This document shows positions 128-49,487 of a stretch of DNA of 64,000 bases, piece after piece. Position 1 is the first letter of the stretch; every line of letters starts with the position of its first letter. Both the position numbers and the translations under genes were made by a program. The DNA is from Patescibacteria group bacterium (GTDB taxonomy: Bacteria; Patescibacteriota; Minisyncoccia; RBG-13-40-8-A): positions 14,057 to 78,056 of the forward strand of contig JAZDGD010000004.1 of NCBI GenBank assembly GCA_043807255.1. The letters are read 5' to 3'. The notes under the pieces were generated by a model, which saw only the letters and a list, made by a program, of their open reading frames with translations, searched no databases and was not told the DNA's origin.

Positions 128-203
128 CTATGCCCCGTAGTGAATTTTCCACTACTGCGGAGCAGTAAAATAAAATTAAGTGGAAAATCTACTACAGTGT
201 ATG
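128..203 (+). repeat. about 76-bp leader element; a near-identical copy lies upstream of murD (47021-47096, minus strand)
   Basis: tatgccccgtagtgaattttccactactgcggagcagtaaaataaaattaagtggaaaatctactacag is present in both copies, in the same orientation relative to the downstream gene. Confidence 0.85.
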
Positions 204-1550
204 GACAATTTAGAAGAAATACGAAAAGTTAGAATACAAAAATTAGAAAATTTGAAGAAAGCTGGAATAGATCCTTATCCAGCAAAGGTTTTGCGCACAC
301 ATACAAATACAGAGGCGTTGAATGGTTTTAAAAAAATGGCTGGTAAAACAAACAAAGAGGGAGTTGTTGTTAAGGGCAAGGCAATAACCTTAGTTGGTAG
401 GATTCGTTCAATTCGCGGTCATGGTGGTTCTACTTTTTGTCATATCGAAGATGGTTTTAGTCAAATTCAAATTTATCTAAGAAAAGATATTGTTGGAGAA
501 AAAGAATACGATCTATTTTTAAGTAATTTTGATATAGGAGATTTTATAGAGGTTTCGGGAAAATTATTTTTAACCCAGAAAGGAGAAAAGACATTACAAG
601 TTTTAAATTATAAAATTTTAACTAAATCGCTTTTACCTTTGCCGAGCGAATGGTATGGTTTGGAAAATATTGAAGAAAGATTTAGAAAAAGATACTTAGA
701 TTTAATTCAAAATAAAGAGATTAAAGATAAATTCATAAAACGTGCTGAAATAATCAAGCAAATAAGGCAATTCTTAGAAAAAGATGGCTTTTTGGAAGTA
801 GAAACGCCAATGCTTCAATCAATGGCTGGTGGAGCCAAGGCGAAACCGTTCAAAACACATTTAAATGCATTAGACATGGATTTATACTTAAGGATAGCCC
901 CGGAACTGTATTTAAAAAGATTATTGGTTGGAGGATTTGATAAAGTTTACGAATTGAATAGAAATTTTAGAAACGAAGGCATGGACAGGGAGCACAATCC
1001 AGAATTTACAATGCTAGAATTTTATGCTGCATATTGGAATTATGAAACAATGATGGATTTTACGGAAAAACTATTAAATTCTTTAGATAAAAAGATATTT
1101 AAAACTCCATTTAAACGCGTTGAATACGATAAAATTGTTAAAGGTGAAGATGAAAAAGAATTTTTCAGCAAGATTGTAGAACCGACGTTTGTGATTAATC
1201 ATCCGATTGAAATTTCGCCATTAGCTAAAAAATTAGAAGGTCAAAACCCCGCAGAGCGGGGCAAGGTTGCTCGATTTCAATTAATTGTTAATGGCATAGA
1301 ATTAGCTAACGCATTTTCTGAATTGAACGATCCCATTGACCAAGCGGAAAGGTTTAGGGCGCAAGAAATTGAAAGAAAGGGCGGGGATGAAGAAGCGCAC
1401 CAATATGATAAAGATTTTATTGAGGCATTAGAATATGGCATGCCTCCGGCATCGGGAATCGGTATTGGTATTGATAGGTTGGTGGCATTATTAACCGATT
1501 CTAAGACATTGCGAGAAATAATTTTATTTCCCACAATGAAACCCAAGTAA
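180..1550 (+). CDS. lysS: lysyl-tRNA synthetase, class II; the true start is probably ATG 201 (MDNLEEIRK...), because the GTG-MENLLQ prefix is encoded by the shared leader repeat
   Basis: class II aaRS motifs; anticodon-binding OB fold; ...FSELNDPIDQAERF... and GIGIDRL near the C-terminus. Confidence 0.9.
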   Translation: MENLLQCMDNLEEIRKVRIQKLENLKKAGIDPYPAKVLRTHTNTEALNGFKKMAGKTNKEGVVVKGKAITLVGRIRSIRGHGGSTFCHIEDGFSQIQIYLRKDIVGEKEYDLFLSNFDIGDFIEVSGKLFLTQKGEKTLQVLNYKILTKSLLPLPSEWYGLENIEERFRKRYLDLIQNKEIKDKFIKRAEIIKQIRQFLEKDGFLEVETPMLQSMAGGAKAKPFKTHLNALDMDLYLRIAPELYLKRLLVGGFDKVYELNRNFRNEGMDREHNPEFTMLEFYAAYWNYETMMDFTEKLLNSLDKKIFKTPFKRVEYDKIVKGEDEKEFFSKIVEPTFVINHPIEISPLAKKLEGQNPAERGKVARFQLIVNGIELANAFSELNDPIDQAERFRAQEIERKGGDEEAHQYDKDFIEALEYGMPPASGIGIGIDRLVALLTDSKTLREIILFPTMKPK

Positions 1551-4063: not shown

Positions 4064-5896
4064 TTATGGAATATAATATACAAATATCGAATTTCCGATA
4101 ACTGTTACGGGTTCATATTGATTGAGCCAGAAATAAAAGTCAGTTTTCTGGGTCCATCCTTTTGTTTGCAGTGCCTGTCCTTGTTGTTTAAATGTTGCAG
4201 AAATTGCTATCCATTTTCCTTTTGCGTCCTTAGGATCATTGTTTCCTGACCATCCCTCAACCTTGTCGCCAAGATAATACTTAGGAATTCCACCCCCAAA
4301 ATAATCTACATAGATTTTGGGGATTTTATTCCCCGCAGACGCAGTTCCTGCTGGCGGGGTAAATTCTTCAACCCACTTCGTAAGTCGTTTTAAGTCTTGT
4401 CCCCAATCAAGATTGGAGTCCGTAACATATTTGTATCCATTTTTTCCTCCACCAGCCAATTCATTAAAATATGATAAATAATATGGGAAAGAAGAGAGCG
4501 AGGAAACCACATACCAACCCGTTAGGCCGATAATTATAATCCAGGAGATTGTAATTATTTTTTTATTGTGGATTTTTTCGAATAATTTTTTCATTTGTCC
4601 AGAAATTAAGACATAGACAAATGGAAAGGTTGGTAAAATATGTCTGACGCCAATATTGAGATTACTGGTTAAGCTTGCGCCCCAATAAATTGCTAAGAAA
4701 ATTAACATTGCAATTTCTGTAAAATACTTGTTTAGCCATTGAGCAAAACGCGAGGCTAAGCCTCGTAAGTTCAATTTCTTACGAGGCTTAGCCTCGTAAG
4801 ATTTAGATCGTTGTGTTAGTATCAATACCAACAATGCAATAATCGTAAAAATATGTAATGCCAATGGTTCTTTAATTGCATAGACAATTGGGAAGTAACT
4901 TTTCCATCCCTTATTTGTAACGTCGCCCAAAAAGAATGTTGTGTTCCCGCCAGTGGCCCTGATAAAGACCATGAACAGCCCCAATGTGTATTGAGCATAT
5001 GGCCTTAATATCGGTTGTTCTGACATCCATATCACAATGTCGCCGGCTGGTTTAAGTGGAAAAGTGGAAGCAAGAAATTTCGTATCAGAAAGTTGTTTTT
5101 CAACGGGATAATTTGCAGTATGAAACATATATACTGGATAGACGAGAATAAAACCAATAATCATGATTAGCACAAATTTCCAAAGATATTTGAGAAAATT
5201 TTTCCAGAATTTTTTGTCTTCTCGCCATTTAATGTAAATATAAATTAAAATTAGAATTCCAAAGTACGGAACCAGTAAAATTAAAGAAAATTTAATTAAT
5301 TGAGCAATGCCAAAAGCAATCCCTGCAAAAAGCAAGTTTTTTCCAGTTTGATCTTTGATCCACTTAATAAAAAAGTAAGAAGCAAAGAAAAATGCAAAAG
5401 CTGCACCGACGTCAGTTGTAACATATCTGCCGTGAGCTAAGAATGTTGGTGAAAAGGCAAATAAAATTGTTGCAAATAGGGCCGGAACTTTGCCATATAA
5501 TTTCTTTGTCCAGCGATAAATAAAAAATCCTAATAAGATTAGGAGTAATAACATTGGAATTCGAGACCAAAAAATAATTTTATCAGCATTATTTCCGGAA
5601 TTATATAAAAAATTAAAACCAAAGTCCCATTGACCATTAACATCAGTTGTCCAAGATTTTATGTTTTCGGGGAAATTAATACCTTTGATAAAAAGCAAGC
5701 CAATTGCCGAAAGATCTTTGAGTAGTGGCGGATGTTCTGGGTTGAGGCGCATATCGTTTTGCGTCATATAGGAATAACCAGCAGGGATATGTGCAACTTC
5801 ATCCATAATTGCCGATTCTTGTTTTTGACTTATTGTTGCCAAAACAAGCATTAATAAAACACAAACTATTGCTAAGATTGGTGCTAATTTCTTCAT
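4064..5896 (-). CDS. GT-C fold glycosyltransferase, family 39/83 (ArnT/PMT-like, lipid-linked sugar transferase)
   Basis: polytopic membrane protein with a first-loop DE motif (MDEVAHIPAGYSY...HPPL) and many TM helices across 610 aa. Confidence 0.7.
   Translation of the reverse strand: MKKLAPILAIVCVLLMLVLATISQKQESAIMDEVAHIPAGYSYMTQNDMRLNPEHPPLLKDLSAIGLLFIKGINFPENIKSWTTDVNGQWDFGFNFLYNSGNNADKIIFWSRIPMLLLLILLGFFIYRWTKKLYGKVPALFATILFAFSPTFLAHGRYVTTDVGAAFAFFFASYFFIKWIKDQTGKNLLFAGIAFGIAQLIKFSLILLVPYFGILILIYIYIKWREDKKFWKNFLKYLWKFVLIMIIGFILVYPVYMFHTANYPVEKQLSDTKFLASTFPLKPAGDIVIWMSEQPILRPYAQYTLGLFMVFIRATGGNTTFFLGDVTNKGWKSYFPIVYAIKEPLALHIFTIIALLVLILTQRSKSYEAKPRKKLNLRGLASRFAQWLNKYFTEIAMLIFLAIYWGASLTSNLNIGVRHILPTFPFVYVLISGQMKKLFEKIHNKKIITISWIIIIGLTGWYVVSSLSSFPYYLSYFNELAGGGKNGYKYVTDSNLDWGQDLKRLTKWVEEFTPPAGTASAGNKIPKIYVDYFGGGIPKYYLGDKVEGWSGNNDPKDAKGKWIAISATFKQQGQALQTKGWTQKTDFYFWLNQYEPVTVIGNSIFVYYIP
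4751..4803. repeat. tandem copies of the CTTACGAGGYYTARCCTCGTAAG palindromic element lying in frame inside the glycosyltransferase CDS
   Basis: cgaggctaagcctcgtaag...cttacgaggcttagcctcgtaag encodes ...SKSYEAKPRKKLNLRGLASRF...; the same element is intergenic at 36183-36208, 42942-42964 and 43931-43953. Confidence 0.75.
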
Positions 5897-13044: not shown

Positions 13045-14253
13045 ATGCACATCTTAGACGATTTAAAATTTAGAGGACTATTAAATCAATCGACTGATAT
13101 TGATGTTTTGAGTAAGCGACTGGAAAAGCCGTGTGTTTTGTATTGCGGATTTGATGTAACAGCTGATAGTTTGCAATTGGGTAATCTTTTACCTTTGCTT
13201 ACGCTAAAAAGATTTCAATCTTTCGGTCATCAGCCAATCGCGCTTTTGGGCAACGGCACAAGTTTGATTGGCGATCCCAGTGGAAAAAAATCCGAAAGAA
13301 TTTTAAATACCAAAAAAACAGTAGACACTTGGTCCAAAGACATTAAAAAGCAAATAGAAAAAATCGTTTCTATTAACGGAAGAGGAAAAGCAAGGGTTGT
13401 TAGCAATATTGATTGGTTGGGAAAAATCAAAATGATTGATTTCATTCGCGATATTGGCAAACACTTTTCTGTGGGCATGATGCTTGCCAAAGAATCAGTT
13501 AAATCGCGTATTGAGGCGGGGATTTCTTTTACAGAATTCAGCTATATGTTACTTCAATCGTATGATTTTTTACGTTTGCATCAAGATTATAATTGTGAAC
13601 TTCAAATTGGTGGTAGTGATCAATGGGGGAATATTACGGCGGGCGTAGATTTAATTAGAAAAATATCTCAAAAAGAGGTTTATGCTTTAACTATTCCATT
13701 GATTACCAAGTCTGATGGTTCGAAGTTTGGTAAAACCGAAACTGGCGCAATATGGCTCGACGCCAAGAAAACCAGTCCTTATCAATTTTATCAGTTTTGG
13801 ATTAATATTGAAGATAAAGACGTAATTAATTTTTTGAAATATTTTACATTTTTATCACATGAAGAAATTTTGAGATTAGAGACCGAAGAAGTTACAAAAA
13901 ATCCTCAAAATAGAGTTGCACAAAAAGTTTTAGCCAGGGAAGTAACAAAAATGATTCATGGAGAAAAAGAATTAAAAAAAGCAGAGGAGATTACCTGTGC
14001 TTTGTTCGGGGGAGACATTAAAAAGTTTTCAGAAAAAGACATTGAAAATGCCTTTAAGGATATGCCTTATTTCGAAACAGAAAAAAAAGAACCAATTGAT
14101 ATGATTAATCTTTTGGTTGATGCAAAAATTTCCGAATCAAGAAGACAGGCGAAAGAAGATATTGAAAATCATGCTATTTCTACCTATGAATTTAATAAAT
14201 GTATGATTGTCCGCAGAGGTAAAAAAAATTACTTCCTGGTTAAGTGGAAGTAA
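13045..14253 (+). CDS. tyrS: tyrosyl-tRNA synthetase
   Basis: class I motifs (GFDVTADSLQLGNL ~ HIGH region; KFGKTE ~ KMSKS) and a C-terminal S4-like domain. Confidence 0.9.
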   Translation: MHILDDLKFRGLLNQSTDIDVLSKRLEKPCVLYCGFDVTADSLQLGNLLPLLTLKRFQSFGHQPIALLGNGTSLIGDPSGKKSERILNTKKTVDTWSKDIKKQIEKIVSINGRGKARVVSNIDWLGKIKMIDFIRDIGKHFSVGMMLAKESVKSRIEAGISFTEFSYMLLQSYDFLRLHQDYNCELQIGGSDQWGNITAGVDLIRKISQKEVYALTIPLITKSDGSKFGKTETGAIWLDAKKTSPYQFYQFWINIEDKDVINFLKYFTFLSHEEILRLETEEVTKNPQNRVAQKVLAREVTKMIHGEKELKKAEEITCALFGGDIKKFSEKDIENAFKDMPYFETEKKEPIDMINLLVDAKISESRRQAKEDIENHAISTYEFNKCMIVRRGKKNYFLVKWK

Positions 14254-14274
14254 TAAAAAATACTAATTTTAAAA

Positions 14275-14609
14275 AAATAAAGGGTTTCTTCTGCCGACCG
14301 GCAGGAGAAACCCTTTTTCTGTCTCTTTTCTAAGGTCACGTGGACCTTGTTTGAGGGGCGTATCTCCTCGTTGACGATTCCCGAAGGAATCATTTTGGGT
14401 GATAAGCCGAGGGTCCTAAGACCCGTTCCTCTTTTGCCCTTACCTTAGGGCGAGATCCTAGAATGTACATCTACGCAAGCAAACAGTACCCTCCTCTCTT
14501 CCTTTGACGGGGCAGTGGGACTTTACCGAGTGCCTCAGATTTTGACAATCAAATTGTCGTTACCCTCCTTTCGGTGGGATGAGATGTTTGATCACCTCCT
14601 CTCAACGCT
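14275..14609 (-). ncRNA. GC-rich structured ncRNA candidate (about 330 nt) of unassigned family; it has rnpB-like short motifs (GGUAAAGUCC, GGUAAGGGCAAAAGAGG, CGGCUUAUC) but is too short for a canonical RNase P RNA
   Basis: roughly 50% GC in a roughly 35% GC genome; extended -10 promoter TTGACT-16-TGCTACAAT on the minus strand (plus coordinates 14616-14643); ends at the bidirectional terminator; no ORF; three GGAGG motifs in the transcript. Confidence 0.45.
14281..14320. terminator. bidirectional terminator aaagggtttctcctgccggtcggcagaagaaaccctttt, with an A-run and a T-run on the two sides
   Basis: perfect long hairpin flanked by A/T runs; it ends tyrS on the plus strand and the antisense ncRNA on the minus strand. 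Confidence 0.7.
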
Positions 14610-14699
14610 ATTTAAATTGTAGCAAAATTTATGTAAAAGTCAAATAGAATCTGGGGATAACTTATTGATTAAGCATTTAAGTTGTGATAAGATATTTTT

Positions 14700-15860
14700 A
14701 TGGAGAGGAAGCGAACAACTTTCTTTATTTTAATAGCCGTGCTAATCGGCGTAGTTATTGGTATATTCGCGTGGAGAATCCTATCACCAAAATTGGGCGT
14801 GGGGATTTTTTATTACAGAATCGATAAAGATAAGGCCAATATATTTTTATTAAATGGACAAGGAGAGGGCGAAAAAGTTGTTTCAATTAATGGCGAAGAG
14901 GTTGAATTGGGAAAATATAGAGCACCACGACATTCTTTTGTGTCTTCAGATAATCGACAATTAGTTTATTTTAAAAAGACCAGAACGGAAGCGATTCAAA
15001 ATATTGGTAACGATTTAGTTGCAAGCAGAATTTTTTATGAACCAATTTTAATTAATTTAAAAACTGGCACAGAAAAGAAAATAAATCAAACCATTGATTC
15101 TGCGTCTTTGCTTTTTTCTCCAGACAGCAACAGTATTGCTTGGACGAAAGAGGTTCAGGGTTCAACTTATCAAGAAATAGAAACAAGTAATCAAAAACGA
15201 GAATTATGGATAAGTCGTGCCGATGGAGAAAATGCCCAATTATTAATTAGTTTCGATGAAAATGTTGTGTTGTTGAAGCGTTGGTATGATAATTATATAT
15301 ATTTTCAAGGAATTTTTGATGTAAATACAAAAAGCTTGGGCAGGGTAAATATTGAAACAAAACAAATCGAATATATAACCCCTCAGGGTTGTGGCGAGAA
15401 TTTGACTAATTGTCAGAACTTTAGTTTTTCTTTGACGGGGAACCTATATCTCTATGAAATTTATAGCAAAAAAAATGACAAAGAAATTACAGAATTATAT
15501 TTAGGAAGCTTTGATACTAAGGAATATAAGCCAATTTTAACCACAGATAGAATTAGTGACAAGATTTGGTCTGATAATGAAAAAGAGTTTTTTTATACCG
15601 AACAAGAAACAATCGATAACCAAAACGTGAAAGAAACCATTCATTTGGTTGATTTATATAAAGAAACAGATAAAAAGTTGTATTCAGGAAGCTATATTAG
15701 TCAATTAGGATATGAAGATTCTAGTAATTATTTATATTTTCTTGAAAAAGCAGAAAGCGATGTAATAAATACATTTGAAATTATTAGACTAAACATTAAA
15801 AGTCAAAAAGCTGAAACGGTTTTAACGGACAATTACAATAACATTTTGATTATACAATGA
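14700..15860 (+). CDS. hypothetical membrane-anchored protein (386 aa)
   Basis: N-terminal TM helix; Tyr/Asn-rich repeats suggestive of a beta-propeller; no catalytic motif recognised. Confidence 0.45.
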   Translation: MERKRTTFFILIAVLIGVVIGIFAWRILSPKLGVGIFYYRIDKDKANIFLLNGQGEGEKVVSINGEEVELGKYRAPRHSFVSSDNRQLVYFKKTRTEAIQNIGNDLVASRIFYEPILINLKTGTEKKINQTIDSASLLFSPDSNSIAWTKEVQGSTYQEIETSNQKRELWISRADGENAQLLISFDENVVLLKRWYDNYIYFQGIFDVNTKSLGRVNIETKQIEYITPQGCGENLTNCQNFSFSLTGNLYLYEIYSKKNDKEITELYLGSFDTKEYKPILTTDRISDKIWSDNEKEFFYTEQETIDNQNVKETIHLVDLYKETDKKLYSGSYISQLGYEDSSNYLYFLEKAESDVINTFEIIRLNIKSQKAETVLTDNYNNILIIQ

Positions 15861-32091: not shown

Positions 32092-32125
32092 GTAATGATT
32101 TTAGCATTTTTAAAAAAGAAATGAA

Positions 32126-32235
32126 AACACGAAAATTACCGAGGTCAGACCTCGGACATAATATAATATGTACGGAGAACAGTTCTCCGTACATCTATAT
32201 TGTCTCCATTTTCGTACGGCCGTGAAAAAAGGGAG
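32126..32235 (+). repeat. intergenic module R1 (CCGAGGTCAGACCTCGG hairpin, TACGGAGAACAGTTCTCCGTA hairpin and a GTACGGCCGTG hairpin); a 110-bp identical copy is at 32867-32976
   Basis: direct repeat read by eye. Confidence 0.85.
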
Positions 32236-32258
32236 ACACGGGAAAACAAAAAAAGTAC

Positions 32259-32287
32259 TTGATTAATAATTTTTATAAGTGTATATT
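32259..32287 (+). promoter_or_regulatory. promoter TTGATT-17-TATATT for the small-gene pair
   Basis: spacing and hexamers read by eye. Confidence 0.45.
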
Positions 32288-32331
32288 GTAATTGAATTCG
32301 AGAATCGAATTTTAAAAAAGAGGAGGAAACG

Positions 32332-32604
32332 ATGGAAAACAAAAAAGTTAACGCATGGAAAGTTCCTTTTAAGGCCGTTGGTGTCGCATTGAGAGTAACG
32401 TGGATTTTGCCAGCCTTCTCGCTGTGTTTAATGTTTTACATGATATGTCTGTATCCACAAGAATTTCGTGACGGCGTCAAACACAAAGATGGTTTAATGT
32501 GGTTCTTATCTTACATTATAATCTGTATTGCCTGGATTATTTTTGCAGTGATTCATAAATACAGAAATCGGCGAAACAAGAAGAAATTTCAAAAAATTAA
32601 TTAA
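32332..32604 (+). CDS. small membrane protein (90 aa, 2 TM helices, basic tail), strong SD
   Basis: aaaagaggaggaaacgATG; hydrophobic helices. Confidence 0.5.
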   Translation: MENKKVNAWKVPFKAVGVALRVTWILPAFSLCLMFYMICLYPQEFRDGVKHKDGLMWFLSYIIICIAWIIFAVIHKYRNRRNKKKFQKIN

Positions 32605-32615
32605 GGAGGTACGAA

Positions 32616-32804
32616 ATGATAGTGATTGTGTACTTTATGGAAGGATCGTTACTTAAAAGGATTGAAGGCACTTTTAAGGACAACTTAGAAGCGGCGGATT
32701 ATTTGGTAAAATGTGGGTGGCATCGGTCTCAAGTTAATCGATGGGAGTCCGGGGGCGATAACCATCATGCACGCATTATTCATGTGGATCCGCCTCGTCA
32801 GTAA
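32616..32804 (+). CDS. small hypothetical protein (62 aa), strong SD
   Basis: ttaaggaggtacgaaATG; followed by a terminator at 32806-32866. Confidence 0.45.
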   Translation: MIVIVYFMEGSLLKRIEGTFKDNLEAADYLVKCGWHRSQVNRWESGGDNHHARIIHVDPPRQ

Positions 32805-32866
32805 AAAGGAGGGCGTTTGCACGTGGGTCGGTAACCATCCCGGCCCTTTTTTATTTTTTTTACACA

Positions 32867-33030
32867 AACACGAAAATTACCGAGGTCAGACCTCGGACAT
32901 AATATAATATGTACGGAGAACAGTTCTCCGTACATCTATATTGTCTCCATTTTCGTACGGCCGTGAAAAAAGGGAAACACAAAAAACAACCCAAAAAAAC
33001 TTGACAGGATTTGTGGACGTGCTATAATGG
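32867..33030 (+). repeat. intergenic module R2 (copy of R1 plus the promoter block)
   Basis: 32867-32976 matches 32126-32235; 32940-33030 matches 33400-33490. Confidence 0.85.
33001..33029 (+). promoter_or_regulatory. consensus promoter TTGACA-17-TGCTATAAT
   Basis: ttgacaggatttgtggacgtgctataat. Confidence 0.6.
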
Positions 33031-33034
33031 TAGC

Positions 33035-33320
33035 ATACGAGAAGGTGGGGGGTGCCAAGCAAAAATTGCCCTTTGGCTGCAACACCCCCTTGTTCTTTCC
33101 TTAAGACAACGAACAAATTTTATAGATATGCTATACTGTGGGGAGAGTTATTAATACTGGAGACGGCGAACCGTCAAAAGGCGAGATACTCTCTCCACCC
33201 CAATCTGATCCTTATGTCTTTATGAAATAGGGGACACATAAACGGACGCCAAAAGTGGCTTCTAGTATTCCGTCCCCGCCCCGGCGAGAACTACATTATA
33301 CCCTCGCCGGTATTTTTTTG
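33035..33320 (+). ncRNA. candidate sRNA/leader transcript of unknown family, ending in a terminator
   Basis: driven by the consensus promoter; no RBS-bearing ORF; internal hairpins (GGGGGGTG/CACCCCC; GGGGAGAG/CUCUCCCC); terminator ccggcgag...ctcgccgg plus T-run at 33283-33320. Confidence 0.3.
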
Positions 33321-33376
33321 TTTTAAATTTACCCCATAGCAATTTTGTTAAAAATTTGATATGGAGTTTGCATTAG

Positions 33377-33490
33377 ACATACGGAGAACTGTTCTCCGTA
33401 TGTCTCTCTTTTTGTACGGCCGTGAAAAAAGGGAAACACAAAAAACAACCCAAAAAAACTCAGACAGGATTTGTGGACGTGCTATAATGA
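33377..33490 (+). repeat. intergenic module R3 (partial copy, including the promoter block)
   Basis: shares tacggagaactgttctccgta, gtacggccgtgaaaaaagggaaacacaaaaaacaacccaaaaaaac and ggatttgtggacgtgctataatg. Confidence 0.8.
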
Positions 33491-33494
33491 TAAA

Positions 33495-33722
33495 CATTAA
33501 GAGAATCGATCTTTAATTTTGACTCAATTGAAACGATGGGAAGACTTATGCCTCCTTTGGGCCAGACAAACGAATGAGACCTGACGGTCCGTTTGTACCC
33601 ATTGTTTCTAGTTGATAGAGTTTGTGCGAAGCAGGCCCAATCCGGCGCAAAGGAATGCGCTTCTGTTCGCTAGACTCGACGGGACATTCGAAAGGATGTC
33701 CCGTTTATTTTTTTAAAATTTG
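33495..33722 (+). ncRNA. candidate sRNA or r-protein leader of unknown family, ending in a terminator just upstream of rpmF
   Basis: promoter (C)AGACA-17-TGCTATAAT at 33461-33489; no credible ORF; hairpins; terminator gggacattcgaaaggatgtccc plus T-run at 33689-33722. Confidence 0.3.
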
Positions 33723-33757
33723 CATTAATTTATTTTTTCTGATATCATAAAACCAAT

Positions 33758-40214: not shown

Positions 40215-40480
40215 GGATAGTACATAATCATTAATTAAATTTTTATGTAAAAGAGCGATAACAATAAGCGTACTTTAAAACAGAGTTTAGTTTTGGAACG
40301 TAGTTCAAAAATTGAGCTCTGTTTTTTAATCAGAAAAACATGTACACAATATTCTAATATGTTTTTATGTAATTTACAGTAGTTTGTGTGAGTTTGTTAG
40401 ATCAAATCGAATCTTTTATGGTTATCCTGATACAATCAGAAGTAGGCAGGCCGTTTCGGCCAATCTACTTCTGAATCTTT

Positions 40481-41940
40481 ATTGAGAGTTTGATCCTAGC
40501 TCAGGACGAACGCTGGCGGCGTGGATTAGGCATGCAAGTCGAATGGGTTTAGACCCATGGCGAACGAGTTAGTAAGACGTAGGTACATCCCTCTGACTCG
40601 GACATAACTTGCCGAAAGGCAAGATAATTTCCGATGGTCTCGAAAGAGTAAAGTCTTATCGCAAGATAAGATGGTGAGAGAGTGGCCTGCGCCCTATCAG
40701 CTAGTTGGTGAGGTAATGGCTCACCAAGGCTATGACGGGTAGGGGGCGTGAGAGCGTGTTCCCCAACGATGGCACTGAGATACGGGCCCTACTCCTACGG
40801 GAGGCTGCAGTCGAGAATCTTCCACAATGGACGAAAGTCTGATGGAGCGACGCCGCGTGAATGAAGAAGTCCTTCGGGATGTAAAGTTCTTTTCTAGAGG
40901 AGCAATTTTTGAGTGTACTCTAGGAATAAGGGGTTGCTAAACTCGTGCCAGCAGCAGCGGTAATACGAGTACCCCAAGCGTTGTCCGGAATTACTGGGCG
41001 TAAAGCGTCTGTAGGGTGTTTGATACGTCTTCTGTTAAATTTCGATGCTCAACATCGGAGCTGCAGGGGAAACGGTCAGACTAGAGAGTGTGAGAGGCTG
41101 ATGGAACTTAAGGAGTAGGGGTGAAATCCGTTGATACCTTAGGGAATACCAAAGGCGAAGGCATTTGGCTGGTGCATTTCTGACCCTGAGAGACGAAAGC
41201 GTGGGGAGCAAAAAGGATTAGATACCCTTGTAGTCCACGCCCTAAACTATGAATACTAGTTGTCTGAAGTATCGACCCTTCAGGTGACGAAGCTAACGCG
41301 TTAAGTATTCCGCCTGGGAAGTACGGTCGCAAGACTAAAACTCAAAGGAATAGACGGGAGCTTGCACAAGCGGTGGAGCGTCTGGTTTAATTCGACGGTA
41401 AGCGAAGAACCTTACCAGGGTTTGAAATTCTAGTGAAAACCTGATGAAAGTCGGGTCTTCTACAAGGACACTAGAACAGGTGCTGCATGGTTGTCGTCAG
41501 CTTGTGGCGTGAGTTGCTCCGTTAATTCGGGTAACAAGCGCAACCCCTGTCGTCTGTTATAAGTGTCAGACGAGACTGCCTCGTGATACGAGGAGGAAGG
41601 TAGGGATGACGCCAAATCAGCATGGCCCTTTGATACCCTGGGCAACACAGGCGCTACAATGGCCGAGACAATGGGTCGCCAAATCGTAAGATGGAGCCAA
41701 TCCCATCAAACTCGGTCCCAGTTCGGATTGGGGTCTGCAATTCGACCCCATGAAGTTGGAATCGCTAGTAATCGCAGATCAGCTACGCTGCGGTGAATAC
41801 GTTCTCAAGCTTTGTACTCACCGCCTGTCACACCAGAGAAGCCGGGAGTACCTGACGTGCCACGATTCGTGGTCCTAAGGTAAATTCGGTGACTAGGGTG
41901 AAGTCATAACAAGGCATCCGTAGGGGAACCTGTGGATGGA
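40481..41940 (+). rRNA. rrs: 16S rRNA (about 1460 nt); the gene ends ...GGGGAACCTGTGGATGGA and the canonical 3' tail GATCACCTCCTTA is not present
   Basis: AGAGTTTGATCCTAGCTCAG at the 5' end; universal blocks (GTGCCAGCAGCAGCGGTAATAC, GCATGGTTGTCGTCAGC, GTCATAACAAGG...); leader and trailer complementarity (TTATCCTG / CAGGATAA) brackets the mature gene. Confidence 0.9.
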
Positions 41941-42186
41941 CAATATTTTTACTTAGTTGATAAAATTTCTAGGTAAAGTCGATTATCTTGCATTGCAGGA
42001 TAAAGCAAAAAAGTTTTTTAATTGTTTGTACTAAACAAACAGTAAGTATCGGGAGAACCATAAAAGATTTGATAATAAAAAAACGAGATTTAATCTCGTT
42101 TTTTTATTATATGCTTGCGTTTATTATTATTTTAGCTGTATAATATAAATAGTATTTTGATAATAATTAATAGTGAATAAAATATT

Positions 42187-42603: not shown

Positions 42604-42626
42604 TTGTAATAATTAACAATAAAAAC

Positions 42627-42890
42627 ATGACACACGAATCAATAGAATTTTCAAAAGTTCCCGATTCTGAGAATGTTAGAAAATTTTTAGATCCATTTAA
42701 AATTGAAGAGGGTATGAAATCTGGCGCACTTAACGATGTAAAAATTAAACGATCTTCTGGAGAAATAGAAAGTGGGTGGGAAATTATTGATTTTGATTTT
42801 AAGTCTGGCGATGTTGTGGCGTGCAAAAAAGAAGGAGATGATTTGCTCCGCAAAAGAGTACAGCTACAAAATTTACGAGAGTGGAACTAA
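42627..42890 (+). CDS. hypothetical protein (88 aa); the ORF-track start at 42564 overlaps tRNA-Ala
   Basis: ATG 42627 lies downstream of the tRNA; no motif. Confidence 0.35.
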   Translation: MTHESIEFSKVPDSENVRKFLDPFKIEEGMKSGALNDVKIKRSSGEIESGWEIIDFDFKSGDVVACKKEGDDLLRKRVQLQNLREWN

Positions 42891-42936
42891 AATAGAATAT
42901 AAAAAAAGAGGCAAAGGCCTCTTTTTTTATGCTCAT

Positions 42937-43002
42937 AATCTTACGAGGTTTAACCTCGTAAGATTTCCTCTCCGATTTTATAAACATCTCCCGCGCTTTG
43001 GA
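42937..43002 (+). repeat. left 66-bp direct repeat, a degenerate duplicate of the murC 3' end plus the palindromic element (attL-like)
   Basis: aatcttacgaggtttaacctcgtaagatttcctctccgattttataaacatctcccgcgctttgga compared with 43926-43991 (about 8 mismatches); the reverse frame encodes QSAGDVYKIGEEILRG*, as does the murC C-terminus. Confidence 0.8.
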
Positions 43003-43003
43003 A

Positions 43004-43032
43004 AATATAAAAATCTGCATACGTTGACAGAT
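43004..43032 (+). promoter_or_regulatory. perfect consensus promoter TTGACA-17-TATAAT driving the inserted gene
   Basis: ttgacagattttttgtttaggcgtataat. Confidence 0.65.
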
Positions 43033-43196
43033 TTTTTGTTTAGGCGTATAATGTAATAAGATTAAATTGTTCTCTAAACAGATAAATAGATTCTACCTGC
43101 AAATATCCAATATGGCGAACCCACGCCTTTGGCGGGGCCACGCCGTATTGGTTCCGTGCCAGACATTTTTGTCTGAGCAAAGAGGAGGAACTGTCC

Positions 43197-43868
43197 ATGA
43201 AAAATCGTGGAACTGTCCGTCTCGCGACACCGGGTCAAATCAAGGATTTGATCTCGGCTCTGGCGCAGGCCATTCCCGCGAATCTGACCTTTACCCAGGC
43301 CAGTTACGGAATCGGCCACAAGAAAGAATTGGCGAAAAAAGTCGGAGAATTTTTCCGCAATTCTTTTATTGAAGCCGTGGAAGATGGGCGAGCGAGTCTT
43401 TTCCCGAGGTGGAAAACTATCGTCGTCGGCGCCTATCAGTCAACTGAAGTTTGGATTGAAGTTCTGTCTGGTGCCGGTTTCCGAATGGGCCTGGTAATCA
43501 GGGACCTCTTGAGTAAAACCAAGAAATTCCAAGACCGGTCCCTCGTAAGCTTTGCCAGGGCGACTGGAGCCGAACTGGGCTTTACGGAGTTGTTTGGGAC
43601 AACTGAACTTATCGCCCGAATCAGGGAGTTCGGTGGAGAACCCTGCAATTCAGATGATGCCCCGGCCCTACGCCAGGCTTATACCGAACAACCCGACGGA
43701 GAATGTCTTTATGTGGTTGTTGAGCCGATTTGCGGTTCGGACGGTCGTATCTGGATTTATGAATTGGTTAGCAGTATCGGCATGCTGTGTATTGACGGCA
43801 ACCATGCCGATCCTGGCATTTATTGGTCTCCCGACTATTCCTTCGTTTTTCGTATCTTCGGCAAGTAG
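43197..43868 (+). CDS. GC-rich (about 55%) hypothetical protein of 223 aa, the cargo of the cassette inserted at the murC 3' end
   Basis: strong SD aaagaggagga; compositional outlier (several overlapping open frames on both strands are typical of high GC); terminator gccccatacagattcgtctgtgtggggc plus T-run at 43876-43918. Confidence 0.6.
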   Translation: MKNRGTVRLATPGQIKDLISALAQAIPANLTFTQASYGIGHKKELAKKVGEFFRNSFIEAVEDGRASLFPRWKTIVVGAYQSTEVWIEVLSGAGFRMGLVIRDLLSKTKKFQDRSLVSFARATGAELGFTELFGTTELIARIREFGGEPCNSDDAPALRQAYTEQPDGECLYVVVEPICGSDGRIWIYELVSSIGMLCIDGNHADPGIYWSPDYSFVFRIFGK

Positions 43869-43925
43869 AATTTTTCGCCCCATACAGATTCGTCTGTGTG
43901 GGGCATCTTTATTTTTTTCATCATA

Positions 43926-43991
43926 AATCTTACGAGGTTTAGCCTCGTAAGATTTCTTCTCCGATTTTGTAAACATCTCCAGCGCCTTGGA
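43926..43991 (+). repeat. right 66-bp direct repeat (the functional murC 3' end; attR-like)
   Basis: see the left repeat. Confidence 0.8.
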
Positions 43992-45240
43992 GGAGGATGA
44001 TGTCGTCTTTTTTCGCCTTGAGTTCTAAATATTTTTTGATGTCATCGAAAGTACTTATATATTGAATGTTTTTTACTTGTCCGCCGAGGAGGCGGATTTT
44101 CTCAACCAGATCTTTGGCGTGAATTGTGTGATCGTCTTTTTCTCGCGAACCATAAATATCGGTGACAATCACTTCGTCTGCTAAATCAAAAGCGGTTGCA
44201 AAATCATTTAATAAAAGCTTTGTGCGCGAATATAGGTGTGGTTGGAAAATAACAAATAATTTATTATTTGGATATTGTTCTTTCGTTGCCTTTATGGTTG
44301 CTTTAATTTCTGTGGGATGATGACCATAATCATTATAAATTAGAGCACCTTTTTTGGTGTTTCCCATAAAATCAAATCTGCGCCAGGTACCAGTATAATC
44401 TTTCAGAATTTTTAAGGCAGTTTTTTCTTCAAGTCCAATTAATTTAGCCGCGCTTAGCGCGGCTTGCGCATTTTTAAAATTGTGTTCGCCGGGAACTGAC
44501 AATTTAATATTTGCGGTTTCTTGTAAATAATTGATTTTTTTGATCTTTGTATTAGAATTTTTTAAAACATCTAAAATGTTTTGATCGTCGCCATTGTAGA
44601 TAATATATCCGTCTTCAGGAACTTTTTCTACCATTTTTTTGAACGCAGTTTTTACATTTTCAATGGTGCCATAATAATCTAAATGATCATTATCAATATT
44701 TAAAATAATTAAAATATTGGGAGTTAAGTTTAAAAACGATTCTTTGTATTCGCAAGCTTCAACAATAAAATATTTACTACTTCCTAAAACAAAATTATCT
44801 TCTTGTTTTTGTAAAAGACCGCCAACAACAACTGTGGGGTCTAAATTTCCATAAATCATTAATTCGGCAATCATGCAGGTGGTGGTTGTTTTGCCGTGAG
44901 TTCCGGAAACCGCAATTGTAAACATATTTTTAGAAATCATTCCTAAAATTTCTGGATATGAATATGTGGGAATGTTTAATTCTTTAGCGTAAATCATCTC
45001 CGGATTGTCTTCGGTTATAGCGGGGGAGTAAACAACCATATCTGCGTCCTGTGGTAAATTTTCGCGTTTATGGCCAATAAAAATTTTGCCGTGGATGGTT
45101 TGAATTCTTTCGGCCATTTTATTCATCGAAACATCGGAGCCAGTAACTTTTATTCCTTTAAGTCGTGCCATTCTGGCAATCGCCGAAACTCCCACGCCCC
45201 CAACTCCAATAAAATGTATTTTTTTAACATGATCTAGCAT
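43939..45240 (-). CDS. murC: UDP-N-acetylmuramate--L-alanine ligase
   Basis: IHFIGVGGVGVSAIA Rossmann N-terminus; GTHGKTTTT P-loop; Mur ligase middle and C-terminal domains. Confidence 0.9.
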   Translation of the reverse strand: MLDHVKKIHFIGVGGVGVSAIARMARLKGIKVTGSDVSMNKMAERIQTIHGKIFIGHKRENLPQDADMVVYSPAITEDNPEMIYAKELNIPTYSYPEILGMISKNMFTIAVSGTHGKTTTTCMIAELMIYGNLDPTVVVGGLLQKQEDNFVLGSSKYFIVEACEYKESFLNLTPNILIILNIDNDHLDYYGTIENVKTAFKKMVEKVPEDGYIIYNGDDQNILDVLKNSNTKIKKINYLQETANIKLSVPGEHNFKNAQAALSAAKLIGLEEKTALKILKDYTGTWRRFDFMGNTKKGALIYNDYGHHPTEIKATIKATKEQYPNNKLFVIFQPHLYSRTKLLLNDFATAFDLADEVIVTDIYGSREKDDHTIHAKDLVEKIRLLGGQVKNIQYISTFDDIKKYLELKAKKDDIILLQGAGDVYKIGEEILRG

Positions 45241-45351
45241 GTTTAAATCTTATCATTTTAAATTAATAAAACAAAATTATTGACAACAATACAATTACTT
45301 GTTATCTTGTAACCAGAACCTTTAAGGTTACTTTTTGTAAGGAGGATGATT

Positions 45352-45585
45352 GTGAAATACAATTCACTAAAGGCAACGAGGGCGGTGACTGGGGTAGAAC
45401 TCGATTTTATTGGGCATGCTCAGGGCCTTCTTCCGATTTTACAGCAAGAGCTTGTTGAAATCAACGAACAAATTAAAAAATTAGGGAGAAGAGCAGGGAT
45501 CAAAAGACTTCTTCGAAGTCTTGCCATTGATGAACTAATCAAGGATCTCAAGGGGGCCATTAAACGGCACGGAGGGAAGGTCTGA
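45352..45585 (+). CDS. small hypothetical protein (about 77 aa), GC-elevated, strong SD, GTG start
   Basis: gtaaggaggatgattGTG; promoter TTGACA-17-TATCTT at 45289-45317; terminator ggacgggggccaaccctcgtccg plus T-run. Confidence 0.4.
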   Translation: MKYNSLKATRAVTGVELDFIGHAQGLLPILQQELVEINEQIKKLGRRAGIKRLLRSLAIDELIKDLKGAIKRHGGKV

Positions 45586-45685
45586 CGTGGAATACGAAAC
45601 GGACGGGGGCCAACCCTCGTCCGTATTTTTTTATTCTAAAATTGACTTGTTTCTCTTTTTGTACGGCCGCGTAAAAAGAGAAATA

Positions 45686-47023
45686 CTATTTCTTTACGTA
45701 TTTTACGAATTGATCACTGCGGTCGTATTCATTTTTGAAAACACCAAACGATGCTGCGCCGGGAGACAATAAAATAATGTCTCCTTTTTTTGTAAATTTT
45801 CTCGCTTCTTTAATCGCTAATTGCATTGAGTCAACGACAATATATTCGGGAAAATCTTTAGGCAAAACGCTTAAAATCTTATCAGTCGCTGTGCCTTTTA
45901 TGAATACAACATTTTTAGTTGTGTTTGTTGTGACTTCTAACATGTCGTTGAAGTTTAATTCTTTATTTGCCCCTCCACAAATTAAAACAATATTTTTCTT
46001 GTTTTTATATAAAGAATTTAGTGCGGCAATACAGGCGTCAGGAGTTGTGGCATTAGAATCGTTATAATAAGTAATTCCGTTCTTCTTTAAAATCATTTGT
46101 AATCGTCCAGGTTCGCCAGGATAGGTAGCAATTGCTTGTTTGATTTGTTTTTGATTTAATTTCATTAATTTTAAAACTTCAACAGCTAAGGCAATGTTTG
46201 TCTTGTTGTGTTCGCCAATTAATTTTGTTTTGAAATTTCTAATTGTATCTTCATTAACAACAATAATCTTGGGATTTATCCCGCCTTGGCGGGACCTCTT
46301 TTTTATTTGCACCATCGCTTGTTCACTGATAATTAAAAAATCATTTTCTGTTTGGTATTTAAAAATTTCCGCCTTGTCATCAAAATATCTTTGCATATCA
46401 TTTTTATAATAATTCATATGATCATTCATAAAGGTTGTGAAAACAGCAATGTGTGGACTGATTTTTGATTCACCAAAACCTTGTAATTGCCAAGAGTCGA
46501 GCTCCAAGACAACGACATCGTTATCCTTAACTTTTTCCAGCAAAGGAAGCGTGGCAAGTCCACGAATATTTCCACCCAAAAATACATTTCCTTTTTTATA
46601 ATATTTTTTTAAACCATGATAAATCATTTTTGTGACCGTTGATTTTCCGCGCGTGCCAGTGATGCCAATAATTTTAGCTTTAGTAAATTTGGTAAACAGA
46701 GAAGCATCCATTTCAATGGGAATGCTGTTTTTTCTTGCTTCTGCCAGATAAATAGAATCAAAGGGAACTCCTGCGGCTTTAATCAATGTGTCGGCCTGTT
46801 GAAAATCTTCAATGCGATGCTGGCCTAAAATATATTTTATGTTTTTAAATTTTTTGAGTTGTTTTAGAGAAGAAGCAAGTTGTTGTTCGGTTTTTAAATC
46901 AGTAATTAAAAGATTGGCATCGTGTTTGGCCAAAAATTTCGCAACATTAATTCCTCGGCCAAGTAGCCCAAGTCCCATGATGATGATTTTTTTGTTTTTG
47001 AAATATTCTTTGTAATTAAGCAT
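45686..47023 (-). CDS. murD: UDP-N-acetylmuramoylalanine--D-glutamate ligase; the start is probably ATG 47023 (MLNYKEYF...), because the MENLLQG prefix in the ORF track lies in the shared leader repeat
   Basis: IIIMGLGLLGRG, GITGTRGKSTVT P-loop, Mur ligase domains. Confidence 0.85.
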   Translation of the reverse strand: MLNYKEYFKNKKIIIMGLGLLGRGINVAKFLAKHDANLLITDLKTEQQLASSLKQLKKFKNIKYILGQHRIEDFQQADTLIKAAGVPFDSIYLAEARKNSIPIEMDASLFTKFTKAKIIGITGTRGKSTVTKMIYHGLKKYYKKGNVFLGGNIRGLATLPLLEKVKDNDVVVLELDSWQLQGFGESKISPHIAVFTTFMNDHMNYYKNDMQRYFDDKAEIFKYQTENDFLIISEQAMVQIKKRSRQGGINPKIIVVNEDTIRNFKTKLIGEHNKTNIALAVEVLKLMKLNQKQIKQAIATYPGEPGRLQMILKKNGITYYNDSNATTPDACIAALNSLYKNKKNIVLICGGANKELNFNDMLEVTTNTTKNVVFIKGTATDKILSVLPKDFPEYIVVDSMQLAIKEARKFTKKGDIILLSPGAASFGVFKNEYDRSDQFVKYVKK

Positions 47024-47096
47024 ACCCTGTAGTAGATTTTCCACTTATTTTTATTTTACTGCTCCGCAGTAGTGGAAAATTCACTACGGGGCATAT
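47021..47096 (-). repeat. leader element copy 2 (see 128-203)
   Basis: the reverse complement matches the lysS leader over about 76 bp. Confidence 0.85.
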
Positions 47097-47220
47097 TTAA
47101 TTCTATCATTATAATATTTTTTAGACAAAATCCCGATGTAGGGTCGGGATAAAAAAAAGAGGGGAGACGCAACAACGATTGTTCGTTGTTTTGTCTCCCC
47201 ACGCTCCGGCCGTTCGTTAT

Positions 47221-47469
47221 CTACTTGGCCAGTTGTTCGATGGCTTTGACGATATTGAGTCCGATACTAAAGATAAGCGTGATGATGGCCAGAAAAGAGC
47301 TAAAAAGTTGCCTGGAAAGATGCCCTTCGTTCCTGTTTTCCGCTGCGCCAATTACCACCAAAATAAAACTGATGACGACAGCCACGAGCATACTAGTAAA
47401 CATTTTATCCTCCAACGTACGAGATAGTGGGTCGATTCGCATCAACACCACGCTAACATATGTAATCAT
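47221..47469 (-). CDS. small membrane protein (82 aa), GC-elevated, apparently leaderless
   Basis: two TM helices; the minus-strand promoter TTGACA-16-TATGAT ends 5 nt before the ATG; terminator ggggagac...gtctcccc plus T-run at 47170-47215; overlapping plus-strand ORFs are judged artefacts. Confidence 0.4.
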   Translation of the reverse strand: MITYVSVVLMRIDPLSRTLEDKMFTSMLVAVVISFILVVIGAAENRNEGHLSRQLFSSFLAIITLIFSIGLNIVKAIEQLAK

Positions 47470-47512
47470 AGCATATACACAAAATTTGTCAAGTTTTTTC
47501 GGGTAAAATAAA

Positions 47513-47550
47513 AATACTGTAAATTGAACGATCGTTCAAAATACAGTATT
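47513..47550. promoter_or_regulatory. 38-bp near-perfect palindrome aatactgtaaattgaacgatcgttcaaaatacagtatt (operator-like); a related copy is at 56545-56580
   Basis: ATACTGTA-N6-ACGATCGT-N6-TACAGTAT architecture at both loci, each next to a strong promoter. Confidence 0.5.
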
Positions 47551-47601
47551 TTAGAAATTATTAATTTTATTCAATGTTTTTATTTTACAAAAAAATTAAT
47601 A

Positions 47602-48534
47602 ATGTATAGTATAAATTATATGTTAAAAGTGTTTTTGGATGCGTTGATTGATAGCGCGAAAATGATTCCGTTGCTTTTTGTGATTTATGTTGCGATTGAA
47701 TTGATTGAATATAAATTTGGAAACAAAATCAGAGAAAAAATGCAGAGCGCAGGAAAATCCGGTCCAGCGATTGGTTCAATTGTTGGTAGTTTTCCGCAGT
47801 GCGGTTTTTCAGTTATTGCTACTGCGCTATATAACCAGAGATTGGTTACAATTGGAACGTTGTTAGCGGTTTATCTCTCAACATCTGACGAAGCAATTCC
47901 TGTGATTTTGTCGCAACCAGAAAAAGCGAAAATGATTTTGCCATTAATTTTAATAAAAATTGTGATCGCTTTAATTGCCGGATATTTTGTTGATTTTATT
48001 TTTAAAAAAAACAAAAACAATGTTTTAACCCATATTGAAAACTATAAACACGGAACAGACGACAAAACCCATCACCATGAATCAGTAATTGAAGAAAAAT
48101 CTTGTTGTGGACATATGCCCAATTCTGTTTCTAAAAAATTTAATCCCAAAGAAATATTTTTTCATCCCTTAATCCATACATTAAAAATTTTCCTTTTTAT
48201 ATTTTGTGCTTCACTTTTAATCGGCATTTTTATTTTTTTGATAGGTGAAGAAACATTTTATAAATTCTTTTCGAATCAAAAATTTTTACAGCCATTTTTA
48301 GCAGCGATAATCGGATTAATTCCTAATTGTGCATCGTCAGTTTTGATTGCACAACTATATTTAAAAGACGTGATTACTTTCGGCTCAATGATTGCTGGGC
48401 TCTGTGCGGGTGGGGGATTGGGAATATTAATTTTATTTAAGGAAGAAAAAAACAAAAGAAATGCATTTAAAGTTTTGGCGTTGCTTTTGGGCATCAGTAT
48501 TTTTGTTGGTTTGACAATTCAATATGTGCTATAA
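47602..48534 (+). CDS. polytopic membrane protein with a central His/Cys-rich loop (HGTDDKTHHHESVIEEKSCCGH), possibly a metal transporter
   Basis: hydrophobic helices in two halves separated by the His-rich loop. Confidence 0.45.
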   Translation: MYSINYMLKVFLDALIDSAKMIPLLFVIYVAIELIEYKFGNKIREKMQSAGKSGPAIGSIVGSFPQCGFSVIATALYNQRLVTIGTLLAVYLSTSDEAIPVILSQPEKAKMILPLILIKIVIALIAGYFVDFIFKKNKNNVLTHIENYKHGTDDKTHHHESVIEEKSCCGHMPNSVSKKFNPKEIFFHPLIHTLKIFLFIFCASLLIGIFIFLIGEETFYKFFSNQKFLQPFLAAIIGLIPNCASSVLIAQLYLKDVITFGSMIAGLCAGGGLGILILFKEEKNKRNAFKVLALLLGISIFVGLTIQYVL

Positions 48535-48582
48535 TTTGTTTTGGAGGGGCTAATTAAATAATTTTATCCGCCTTGGGCGGAA

Positions 48583-49479: not shown

Positions 49480-49487
49480 TTGTCTAT

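Follow-up and report, generated by a model that had tools for sequence, protein, structure and literature searches.

A predicted gene for a structured RNA with Shine-Dalgarno-like motifs next to tyrS in Portnoybacteria-like Patescibacteria

The gap between tyrS and a gene for a TolB-like protein

We analysed a 64,000-nucleotide (nt) stretch of contig JAZDGD010000004.1 from a Patescibacteria group bacterium (assembly GCA_043807255.1), hereafter the window, and in particular the gap between the stop codon of tyrS, which encodes tyrosyl-tRNA synthetase (TyrRS), and the start of a gene for a protein of 386 amino acids (aa) at 14700. The gap is taken up by an element rich in guanine and cytosine (GC), and its promoter, terminator and predicted fold indicate that the segment 14271–14643 is very probably a free-standing minus-strand gene whose product is a folded non-coding RNA, approximately 290–340 nt long. 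Judged by TyrRS and the 386-aa protein, the nearest named relatives of the organism are Candidatus Portnoybacteria (Patescibacteria). The features of the locus are listed below.

13045–14253, convergent with the RNA: tyrS (Pfam tRNA-synt_1b)
14271–14316, both strands: hairpin terminator common to the RNA and the convergent tyrS, with U-runs on each side
14271–14609, minus strand: predicted primary transcript, approximately 340 nt including the terminator (from promoter and terminator positions; 5' end inferred from promoter spacing)
14616–14643, minus strand: sigma-70 promoter TTGACT-16-(TGC)TACAAT with TG extension (promoter scan, 10 of 12 consensus positions)
14700–15860, divergent from the RNA: gene for the 386-aa protein, no Pfam match (a 385-aa TolB-like membrane protein in relatives)

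The GC content was 0.49 at 14321–14610, compared with approximately 0.30–0.33 in the flanks and 0.36 in the whole window. A first-pass annotation of this DNA had described a stretch of about 50% GC without a credible open reading frame (ORF), and our examination agrees. The sole minus-strand ORF of at least 40 aa (14229–14393, 54 aa) crosses the terminator and is not conserved in relatives. No conserved ORF was found on either strand of the element in the window and its relatives, and the only frame recurring among its versions is three codons long (UUG CUU GNN stop). The absence of a conserved ORF led us to reject a small protein-coding gene or a type I toxin mRNA.

The same annotation had proposed a minus-strand extended −10 promoter at 14616–14643 and a bidirectional terminator, and both were found. 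At the same place as this promoter, all ten full-length versions of the element described below carry a TTGAC(A/T)-16/17-TAnAAT-like promoter, and a remnant of the element at one related locus (L081) keeps a promoter with a weaker −10 box (TGCAAT). Thirteen near-consensus promoters of the RNA's type occur in the window against 0.62 expected from shuffles, suggesting that such close matches to the consensus are genuine in this genome. The terminator scan gave a plus-strand stem of 17 pairs at 14279–14316 with U-tracts on both sides; in the minus-strand reading a single C.A mismatch interrupts the stem, and UUUAUUUUUUU comes after it. In every relative a terminator lies at this position.

Two other observations concern promoters of the region and the window. 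A DnaA-box-like TTATCC(A/C)CA lies at 14652–14660, between the promoter of the RNA and that of the 385-aa protein gene. It is also present in L081, L085, L087, L089–L091, L094, L095 and L097–L099, is a perfect TTATCCACA in many relatives, and is retained even in relatives without the RNA. At 56596–56680, a promoter almost identical to that of the RNA (TTGACTTTTTGTCTAGTCTTGCTACAAT) stands ahead of a 130-aa ORF, the leader of which begins with an AAGGAG...CUCCUU hairpin, that is, a Shine-Dalgarno (SD) sequence paired with an anti-SD-like run.

Distribution among relatives and predicted fold

The gene order tyrS, gap, 385-aa protein, GH1, EamA and aminotransferase is conserved among the related loci, designated here by L numbers, and the gap varies from 10–20 nt to 565 nt. 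We found ten distinct full-length versions of the element (the window, L085, L087, L088, L089, L090 (= L224), L091, L097, L098 and L099), all of them in Portnoybacteria-like genomes and each flanked by the tyrS terminator on one side and by the promoter of the divergent 385-aa gene on the other. They agree in position, orientation, promoter and terminator, and the homologous transcripts in relatives measure 184–459 nt. All-against-all blastn placed the window, L087, L090, L097, L088 and, weakly, L085 in a group A, and L091, L098 and L099 in a group B, with L089 as a loner; between the bodies of the groups blastn gave no significant similarity. The window and L099 share the stretch AACGGGUCUU[AGGACCC]UCGGCU(U)AUCACCCA (local score 37 versus 19.3 ± 2.8 in shuffles, 0/300), at which the overall closer relatives of the window differ.

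A stub consisting of the −35 box, a weaker −10 box, a GAAGGAGGUGAUCUUC hairpin and the terminator was seen in L081, L082, L084 and L233, and no element was present at the syntenic site in L086, L092–L095, L223, L226–L232 and L234–L238. Contigs encoding an identical 385-aa protein carried one of two alleles, with a gap of 185 nt where the stub is present and of 120 nt where the element is cleanly deleted, suggesting that loss is ongoing within one population. Judged from these sequences, the family is fast-evolving and mosaic; at this locus it is dispensable, and loss has occurred more than once. We found no second copy in the window or in ~2.9 Mb of related loci. In viral contigs, two specific motif patterns gave no match, and a loose pattern (SD plus UUUGCUUG) gave apparent chance matches that were not individually inspected. 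A search of the window and the loci with the pattern CCAC...AAGGAGG was uninformative, and a TyrRS scan of reference genomes returned 80 loci and no homologue of the RNA, the two closest contigs stopping inside tyrS.

The neighbouring tyrS has a history of its own in some relatives. In L090 (~2000–2040) and L224 (2425–2455) tyrS was replaced in place by a gene for a TyrRS of the S4-domain type (394 aa); the leftover 3' end of the window-type tyrS (...KNYFLIKWK stop) lies downstream, and the RNA gene and the original terminator are still in place. In L083, a run of N at 5268–5365, flanked by duplicated sequence, lies right behind the tyrS terminator. Assemblies tend to break at this locus (L083, and the contig ends of L001 and L008 inside tyrS), as might be expected if the intergenic element varied in length between strains.

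Folding of the single sequence was only modestly better than that of shuffles on either strand (z = −2.1 for the minus and −1.9 for the plus strand), and the evidence for a structure therefore comes from comparison with relatives and not from folding energy. The comparative alignment recommended by the first-pass annotation did reveal covarying pairs, with both sides changed in 10 pairs of group A and 6 pairs of group B. The predicted elements of the RNA, all on the minus strand, are listed from its 5' end.

14588–14605: 5' hairpin UUGA-[GAGGAGGUGA]-UCAA with the SD-like GGAGGUGA in its loop (covariation, 5 sequences)
14563–14578: hairpin CCCACC-GAAA-GGAGGG with an A.A mismatch, a GNRA loop and a second A-rich GGAGG (read from sequences)
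14544–14558: hairpin GACAAU-UUG-AUUGUC (minimum free energy (MFE) and centroid folds; identical in L087 and L090, similar in L085)
14471–14495: third GGAGG followed by the conserved UUUGCUUG, together AGGAGGGUACUGUUUGCUUGCGUAG; alternatively the mini-frame UUG CUU GCG UAG (comparison)
14436–14451: hairpin H1, GCCCU-AAGGUA-AGGGC (helix 1 of alignment A5: 5 pairs, 100% paired, one varying through G.U)
14353–14431: three-way-junction core with closing stem GAGG/CCUC, H2 (GGGUC-UUAG-GACCC) and a long arm
14332–14348: hairpin AAGGUC-CACGU-GACCUU just before the terminator (MFE fold; counterparts GGUCCACGCGACC in L088 and GGUCUGAUCGACC in L085)

In alignment A5 of the group A core, which includes H1 and was made manually from four sequences, all cells of the 36 pairs are paired (100%), and 10 pairs changed on both sides compared with 2.6 in shuffles (0/500 reach this number); slid controls pair only 37–58%. 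Independent MFE folds of the group A cores agree on H1, the GAGG/CCUC-closed junction, H2 and the UUCG-capped arm. The long arm is capped by a C(UUCG)G hairpin at 14374–14393 and has CGGCUUAUC (14401–14409) as its 5' strand, and H1 is also found in L088. In the 3' half of group B, 26 pairs were 98.6% paired and 6 of them changed on both sides (1/500 shuffles), while RNAalifold, run on a separate MAFFT alignment of that group, gave 12 compensated pairs. For the group A core, MAFFT and RNAalifold misaligned the variable stems and yielded a poor consensus, so N-padded manual alignments were used; the L081 stub was left out of them, as MAFFT had shifted it. These compensatory changes support the predicted three-way-junction core.

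In the 5' hairpin, the five pairs are 100% paired in five sequences (the window, L087, L090, L097 and L085), and two of them changed on both sides. Its covariation score was reached by 16 of 500 shuffles and its count of both-sided changes by 55 of 500, and slid controls pair 0–50%. The stem takes the forms UUGA/UCAA, UUGGA/UCCAA, UGAGA/UCUCA and UGGA/UCUG around a loop of 8–10 nt that holds GGAGGU(G/A)A. An element CCCA...(A)AAAGGAGG(G) comparable to the hairpin at 14563–14578 occurs in most of the ten family members; both of its sides are conserved, and it accordingly shows no covariation. The motif AGGAGG-N4-9-UUUGCUUG is shared by the window, L087, L090, L085, L091, L098 and L099. Over the alignments of both groups we counted 12 G.U cells and no A.C cell, and the UUCG and GAAA tetraloops read correctly on the minus strand only, which argues that the RNA is the minus strand.

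Known RNA families and the RNase P reading

With Rfam 15 at gathering thresholds, the whole window returned rRNAs and tRNAs only. When the threshold was relaxed to E ≤ 10 on 14150–14750 (601 nt), chance matches to the terminator hairpin were all that appeared, and RNase P, 6S, tmRNA, SRP and T-box were absent; at E ≤ 1, nine homologous loci gave no match over the element. ARAGORN found no tmRNA in the window. We therefore rejected tmRNA, having no match from either program, and SRP RNA, having no Rfam match. 6S RNA also lacked an Rfam match, and the predicted fold is a string of hairpins with a three-way junction and lacks the long rod and central bubble of 6S RNA. A T-box leader was rejected because no Rfam match was obtained and the RNA lies downstream of tyrS and convergent to it. 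The first-pass description of a non-coding RNA without an assigned family thus stands: the RNA family is so far known only from Portnoybacteria-like Patescibacteria, and it has no match in Rfam 15.

The lead idea of that annotation was a minimal or unusual RNase P RNA, and the element does share several features with bacterial RNase P RNA (RF00010 / RF00011): its length, which falls among those of the smallest bacterial RNase P RNAs, a GC-rich body in an AT-rich genome, a strong promoter, and three strings resembling conserved regions (CR). The strings are present in the window in the order CR-I, CR-II, CR-V, as the annotation had said (GGUAAAGUCC at 14518–14527, GGUAAGGGCAAAAGAGG at 14428–14444 and CGGCUUAUC at 14401–14409), but the identity drawn from them fails. 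No RNase P model matched the element even at E ≤ 10, nor were the nine relatives matched at E ≤ 1. The CR-V-like CGGCUUAUC pairs locally with GAGAUACGCC in the covarying arm; L087, L090 and L097 have GGAC...GUCC/GGAU in its place and still form the pairs. The CR-I-like AAAGUCC reads AAAAUCC in L087 and L090, so that its G is an A there, and in L099 a related string, CGGCUAUC, precedes an AAAGUC string instead of following it. We saw no conserved P4 pairing between the CR-I-like and CR-V-like strings. The element is moreover dispensable at this locus, being deleted from the syntenic site in close relatives and reduced to a stub in L081, although a copy may lie elsewhere in their genomes. We consider the RNase P reading effectively refuted, and a minimal or unusual RNase P RNA at this place to be scarcely credible.

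Shine-Dalgarno-like motifs and a possible decoy role

The 16S gene (40478–41951) ends GACAAUAUUUUUA (41939–41951) where the model has GAUcACCUCCUUu. This confirms that the gene is without its 3' tail, as first noted from the sequence: GACAAUAUUUUUA stands in place of GAUCACCUCCUUU, there is no CCUCC, and the anti-SD is therefore missing. No CACCTCC-type tail was found elsewhere on the rRNA strand in the window. Approximately half of Parcubacteria lack the anti-SD (PMC9297842). An SD is missing from most genes of the window, many of which look as if they were leaderless, their ATG lying 6–8 nt behind a −10 box. About ten genes, judged by eye, have a textbook (A)AGGAGG 5–8 nt from the start codon (starts at 11469(−), 22378, 22950, 32332, 32616, 43197, 45352, 47403(−), 57193 and 57635), and among the SD-led genes are those for dCMP deaminase and thymidylate kinase, together with several small ORFs that have strong promoters ahead of them. 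With all three variants of the SD-like motif counted, 23 starts are preceded by one, compared with 2 in a reversed-sequence control.

Several further elements of the window lie around the rRNA genes or bear similar motifs. Between tRNA-Ala and 23S, ~7.5 kb (42604–50113) hold protein-coding genes and two strong promoters (49451 and 49714). Between the 23S match and the 5S gene there is a 137-aa ORF (53095–53508) with a LAGLIDADG-like GFLDGDGS in frame ahead of it, suggesting that a homing endonuclease was inserted close to the 3' end of 23S. Near-identical 45-nt sequences (tgcggagcagtaaaataaaa(t)taagtggaaaatctactacag) stand at 156–200 and 47024–47068, ahead of the ORFs at 201–1550 (+) and 45686–47023 (−), and may be two insertion-sequence ends or a shared regulatory element. 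The region 32120–33730 contains three copies of a ~130-nt repeat, starting near 32127, 32870 and 33370, each with the hairpin GTACGGAGAAC-AGTTCTCCGTAC inside it and a promoter behind it. Two small SD-led ORFs come after copy 1 (32127), and GC-rich non-coding stretches on the plus strand after copies 2 and 3 (33035–33320 and 33495–33722). Neither of these two stretches matches Rfam, and both are much more stably folded than their shuffles (z = −4.2 and −6.6); the second bears UGCCUCCUUUGGG, an anti-SD-like run.

The minus strand of the element carries three GGAGG motifs, the number given by the first-pass annotation, and no CCUCC. An A-rich GGAGG is the only sequence feature kept across group A, group B and the loner L089, and over the family GGAGG is enriched ~4-fold (25 copies versus 6.2 in dinucleotide shuffles, maximum 16), with only 2 copies of CCUCC. 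The annotation had looked at the other strand as well and pointed to a CCUCC string at 14603–14616; the string exists, but at 14590–14601 (GATCACCTCCTC), 13 nt away from that position. Chance alone would give about 1.6 occurrences of such a 10-mer in the window if one mismatch is allowed, so that the plus-strand string is not significant by itself and takes its meaning from conservation in relatives. Its core GATCACCTCC is the complement of the 5' hairpin loop of the minus-strand RNA and is absent from L088, L089 and group B (L091, L098, L099).

What the RNA does is a more tentative matter than its existence. Our preferred explanation combines the structured RNA gene with a decoy mechanism, and as a whole we hold it at somewhat less than an even chance. 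The RNA would act in trans through A-rich GGAGG elements, look-alikes of the SD, held in hairpins; one would be displayed in the loop of the 5' hairpin and another in the CCCACC-GAAA-GGAGGG hairpin, and the remaining RNA would serve as a stabilising scaffold of exchangeable hairpins. Its partner would be a reader of SD-like sequences, be it a protein of the CsrA type or a small CU-rich RNA, and by acting as a decoy the RNA would tune those genes, a minority in this genome, that have SD-like sites. Because the organism's own 16S rRNA lacks the anti-SD, a factor that recognises SD-like sequences is the likelier partner, and an RNA that acts as a 5' stabiliser or as a decoy for the 30S subunit is unlikely, the ribosome being unable to pair with GGAGG.

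The closest parallels are the CsrB/RsmY/RsmZ sponges, which likewise are free-standing, non-essential genes with a strong promoter and an intrinsic terminator. Their sequence and length vary between taxa, and the only conserved feature is a repeated GGA-containing purine motif on hairpins. Variable bodies around a conserved purine motif are a hallmark of the CsrB/Rsm RNAs, and a decoy role would fit the same pattern in the present family. The present RNA differs in having only 2–4 motifs, with the full SD-like AAAGGAGG and not A(N)GGA, most of them predicted to be paired, and in giving no sequence or covariance-model match. Small RNAs of Firmicutes with C/U-rich seeds, of the RsaE/RoxS and RNAIII type, mask SD sequences. 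They too are hairpin-rich and trans-encoded, with a short conserved motif tied to SD/anti-SD pairing. The polarity is reversed here, however, since our RNA carries the SD side (GGAGG) and would be the target or decoy of such RNAs.

A number of observations weigh against the preferred explanation. The repeated loss and the stub alleles in one population indicate that close relatives do not need the RNA. Because the alignments are small (3–5 related sequences) and were fitted to the structures, the shuffle counts given above are indications and not probabilities. The GGAGG enrichment was counted over related sequences and is therefore partly one inherited feature. Most GGAGG copies are paired in thermodynamic folds (unpaired probability 0.0–0.4), unlike those in the loops of CsrB and RsmZ, and with 2–4 motifs each RNA falls far below CsrB. 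Finally, a tblastn search with E. coli and B. subtilis CsrA gave no csrA (best E of 0.28) in the window and the loci, which are a small part of any genome, so that the power of this search is low. As for the other candidate partner, duplex prediction between the RNA and the CU-rich RNA at 33.5 kb returned a meaningless full-length duplex, no better than shuffles (12/40). High expression of csrA has been reported for ultra-small prokaryotes of groundwater in general (PMC9938205). Taken alone, a decoy or regulatory role through the GGAGG motifs is possible but doubtful.

The main rival is that the element has no function and is a decaying transcribed remnant, whether an orphaned leader with its promoter, SD and start codon or what is left of a mobile or foreign insertion. 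Its presence or absence among close relatives, the stub and the full deletion beside an identical protein, the mosaic bodies with their quick turnover, and the 49% GC in a window of 36% all speak for this reading, and AGGAGG-N5-7-UUG with a stop after three codons resembles a truncated translation start. Neutral decay would not, however, maintain helices by compensatory changes across diverged versions; the promoter is near consensus in 10/10 full versions, and we saw no conserved ORF, repeat or inverted terminal repeat, no second copy in the window and ~2.9 Mb, and no match to the specific patterns in viral contigs; we regard this explanation as rather unlikely. Somewhat less likely still is a role in cis, by which divergent transcription or the RNA would control the adjacent 385-aa TolB-like gene, or would insulate or terminate the convergent tyrS. 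The promoters of the RNA and of the 385-aa gene do stand back-to-back across the conserved DnaA-box-like TTATCC(A/C)CA, and all ten versions lie immediately upstream of and divergent from the 385-aa gene, whichever type of tyrS is opposite. Yet that gene keeps its promoter and the box without the RNA in L094 and L095 and is elsewhere fused into the upstream operon, and a covarying structure of 200–450 nt is not needed for such a role.

Two other explanations turn on pairing with the ribosome. In Bacillus leaders of the cryIIIA type, an SD-like GAAAGGAGG known as STAB-SD pairs with the 16S anti-SD, and the recurrent motif of the present RNA has the core GAAAGGAGG, which we take to be the same string; in both cases an SD-like sequence lies near the transcript 5' end with no real gene behind it. 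The loop sequence GGAGGUGAUC lies no more than ~20 nt from the predicted 5' end and is complementary to the canonical 16S tail GAUCACCUCC over 10 nt without a mismatch; by pairing with the 16S 3' end it might protect the RNA or titrate 30S subunits. This RNA, in contrast to the STAB-SD leaders, stands alone and is not part of an mRNA, and the organism's own 16S ends GACAAUAUUUUUA without CCUCC and is not complementary to the loop; no other CACCTCC-type tail exists on the rRNA strand of the window, and the extended UGAUC complement is absent from L088, L089 and group B. A stabilising or ribosome-binding RNA of this kind thus appears improbable. It could instead be the plus strand that functions, as a 3' untranslated region of tyrS or as a 16S 3' tail with CCUCC supplied in trans, given that it bears GAUCACCUCCUC and two further CCUCCU runs, that the 16S gene lacks exactly such a tail, and that the folding energy is similar on both strands. 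The first-pass annotation had likened the plus-strand GATCACCTCC to the missing tail, and the idea of a displaced tail does not hold: the strand has no promoter and lies behind the strong 17-pair terminator, the string is the complement of a loop and is absent from five relatives, with GAUCACCUCC missing in half of the family, and the loss of the anti-SD is clade-wide. In addition, the 12 minus-strand G.U pairs would turn into A.C mismatches, and the two tetraloops are correct on the minus strand only. A functional plus strand is therefore very improbable.

Among the three alternatives of the first-pass annotation, a novel regulatory RNA is the one that survives, and the decoy reading described above is our tentative version of it; the RNA may or may not have been acquired horizontally. 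A broader and unlikely idea is that, after loss of the anti-SD, the SD-like GGAGG would survive as a regulatory and not a ribosome-binding code that marks a minority of genes. The RNA, with the same elements on its hairpins, would be the decoy for the reader of this code, which might be a protein of the CsrA type or a CU-rich RNA, for example the one at 33.5 kb.

We found no description of small regulatory RNAs in the Candidate Phyla Radiation in the literature. The family reported here is very probably a real and hitherto uncatalogued RNA family in an under-studied phylum, and its recognition removes a tempting but wrong annotation as a minimal RNase P. Running from promoter to terminator and supported by covariation, it offers an entry point to the small RNAs of the Candidate Phyla Radiation. 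With SD look-alikes in a clade devoid of the anti-SD, and about ten textbook-SD genes in the same window, the role of SD sequences that the ribosome would be unable to read becomes testable.

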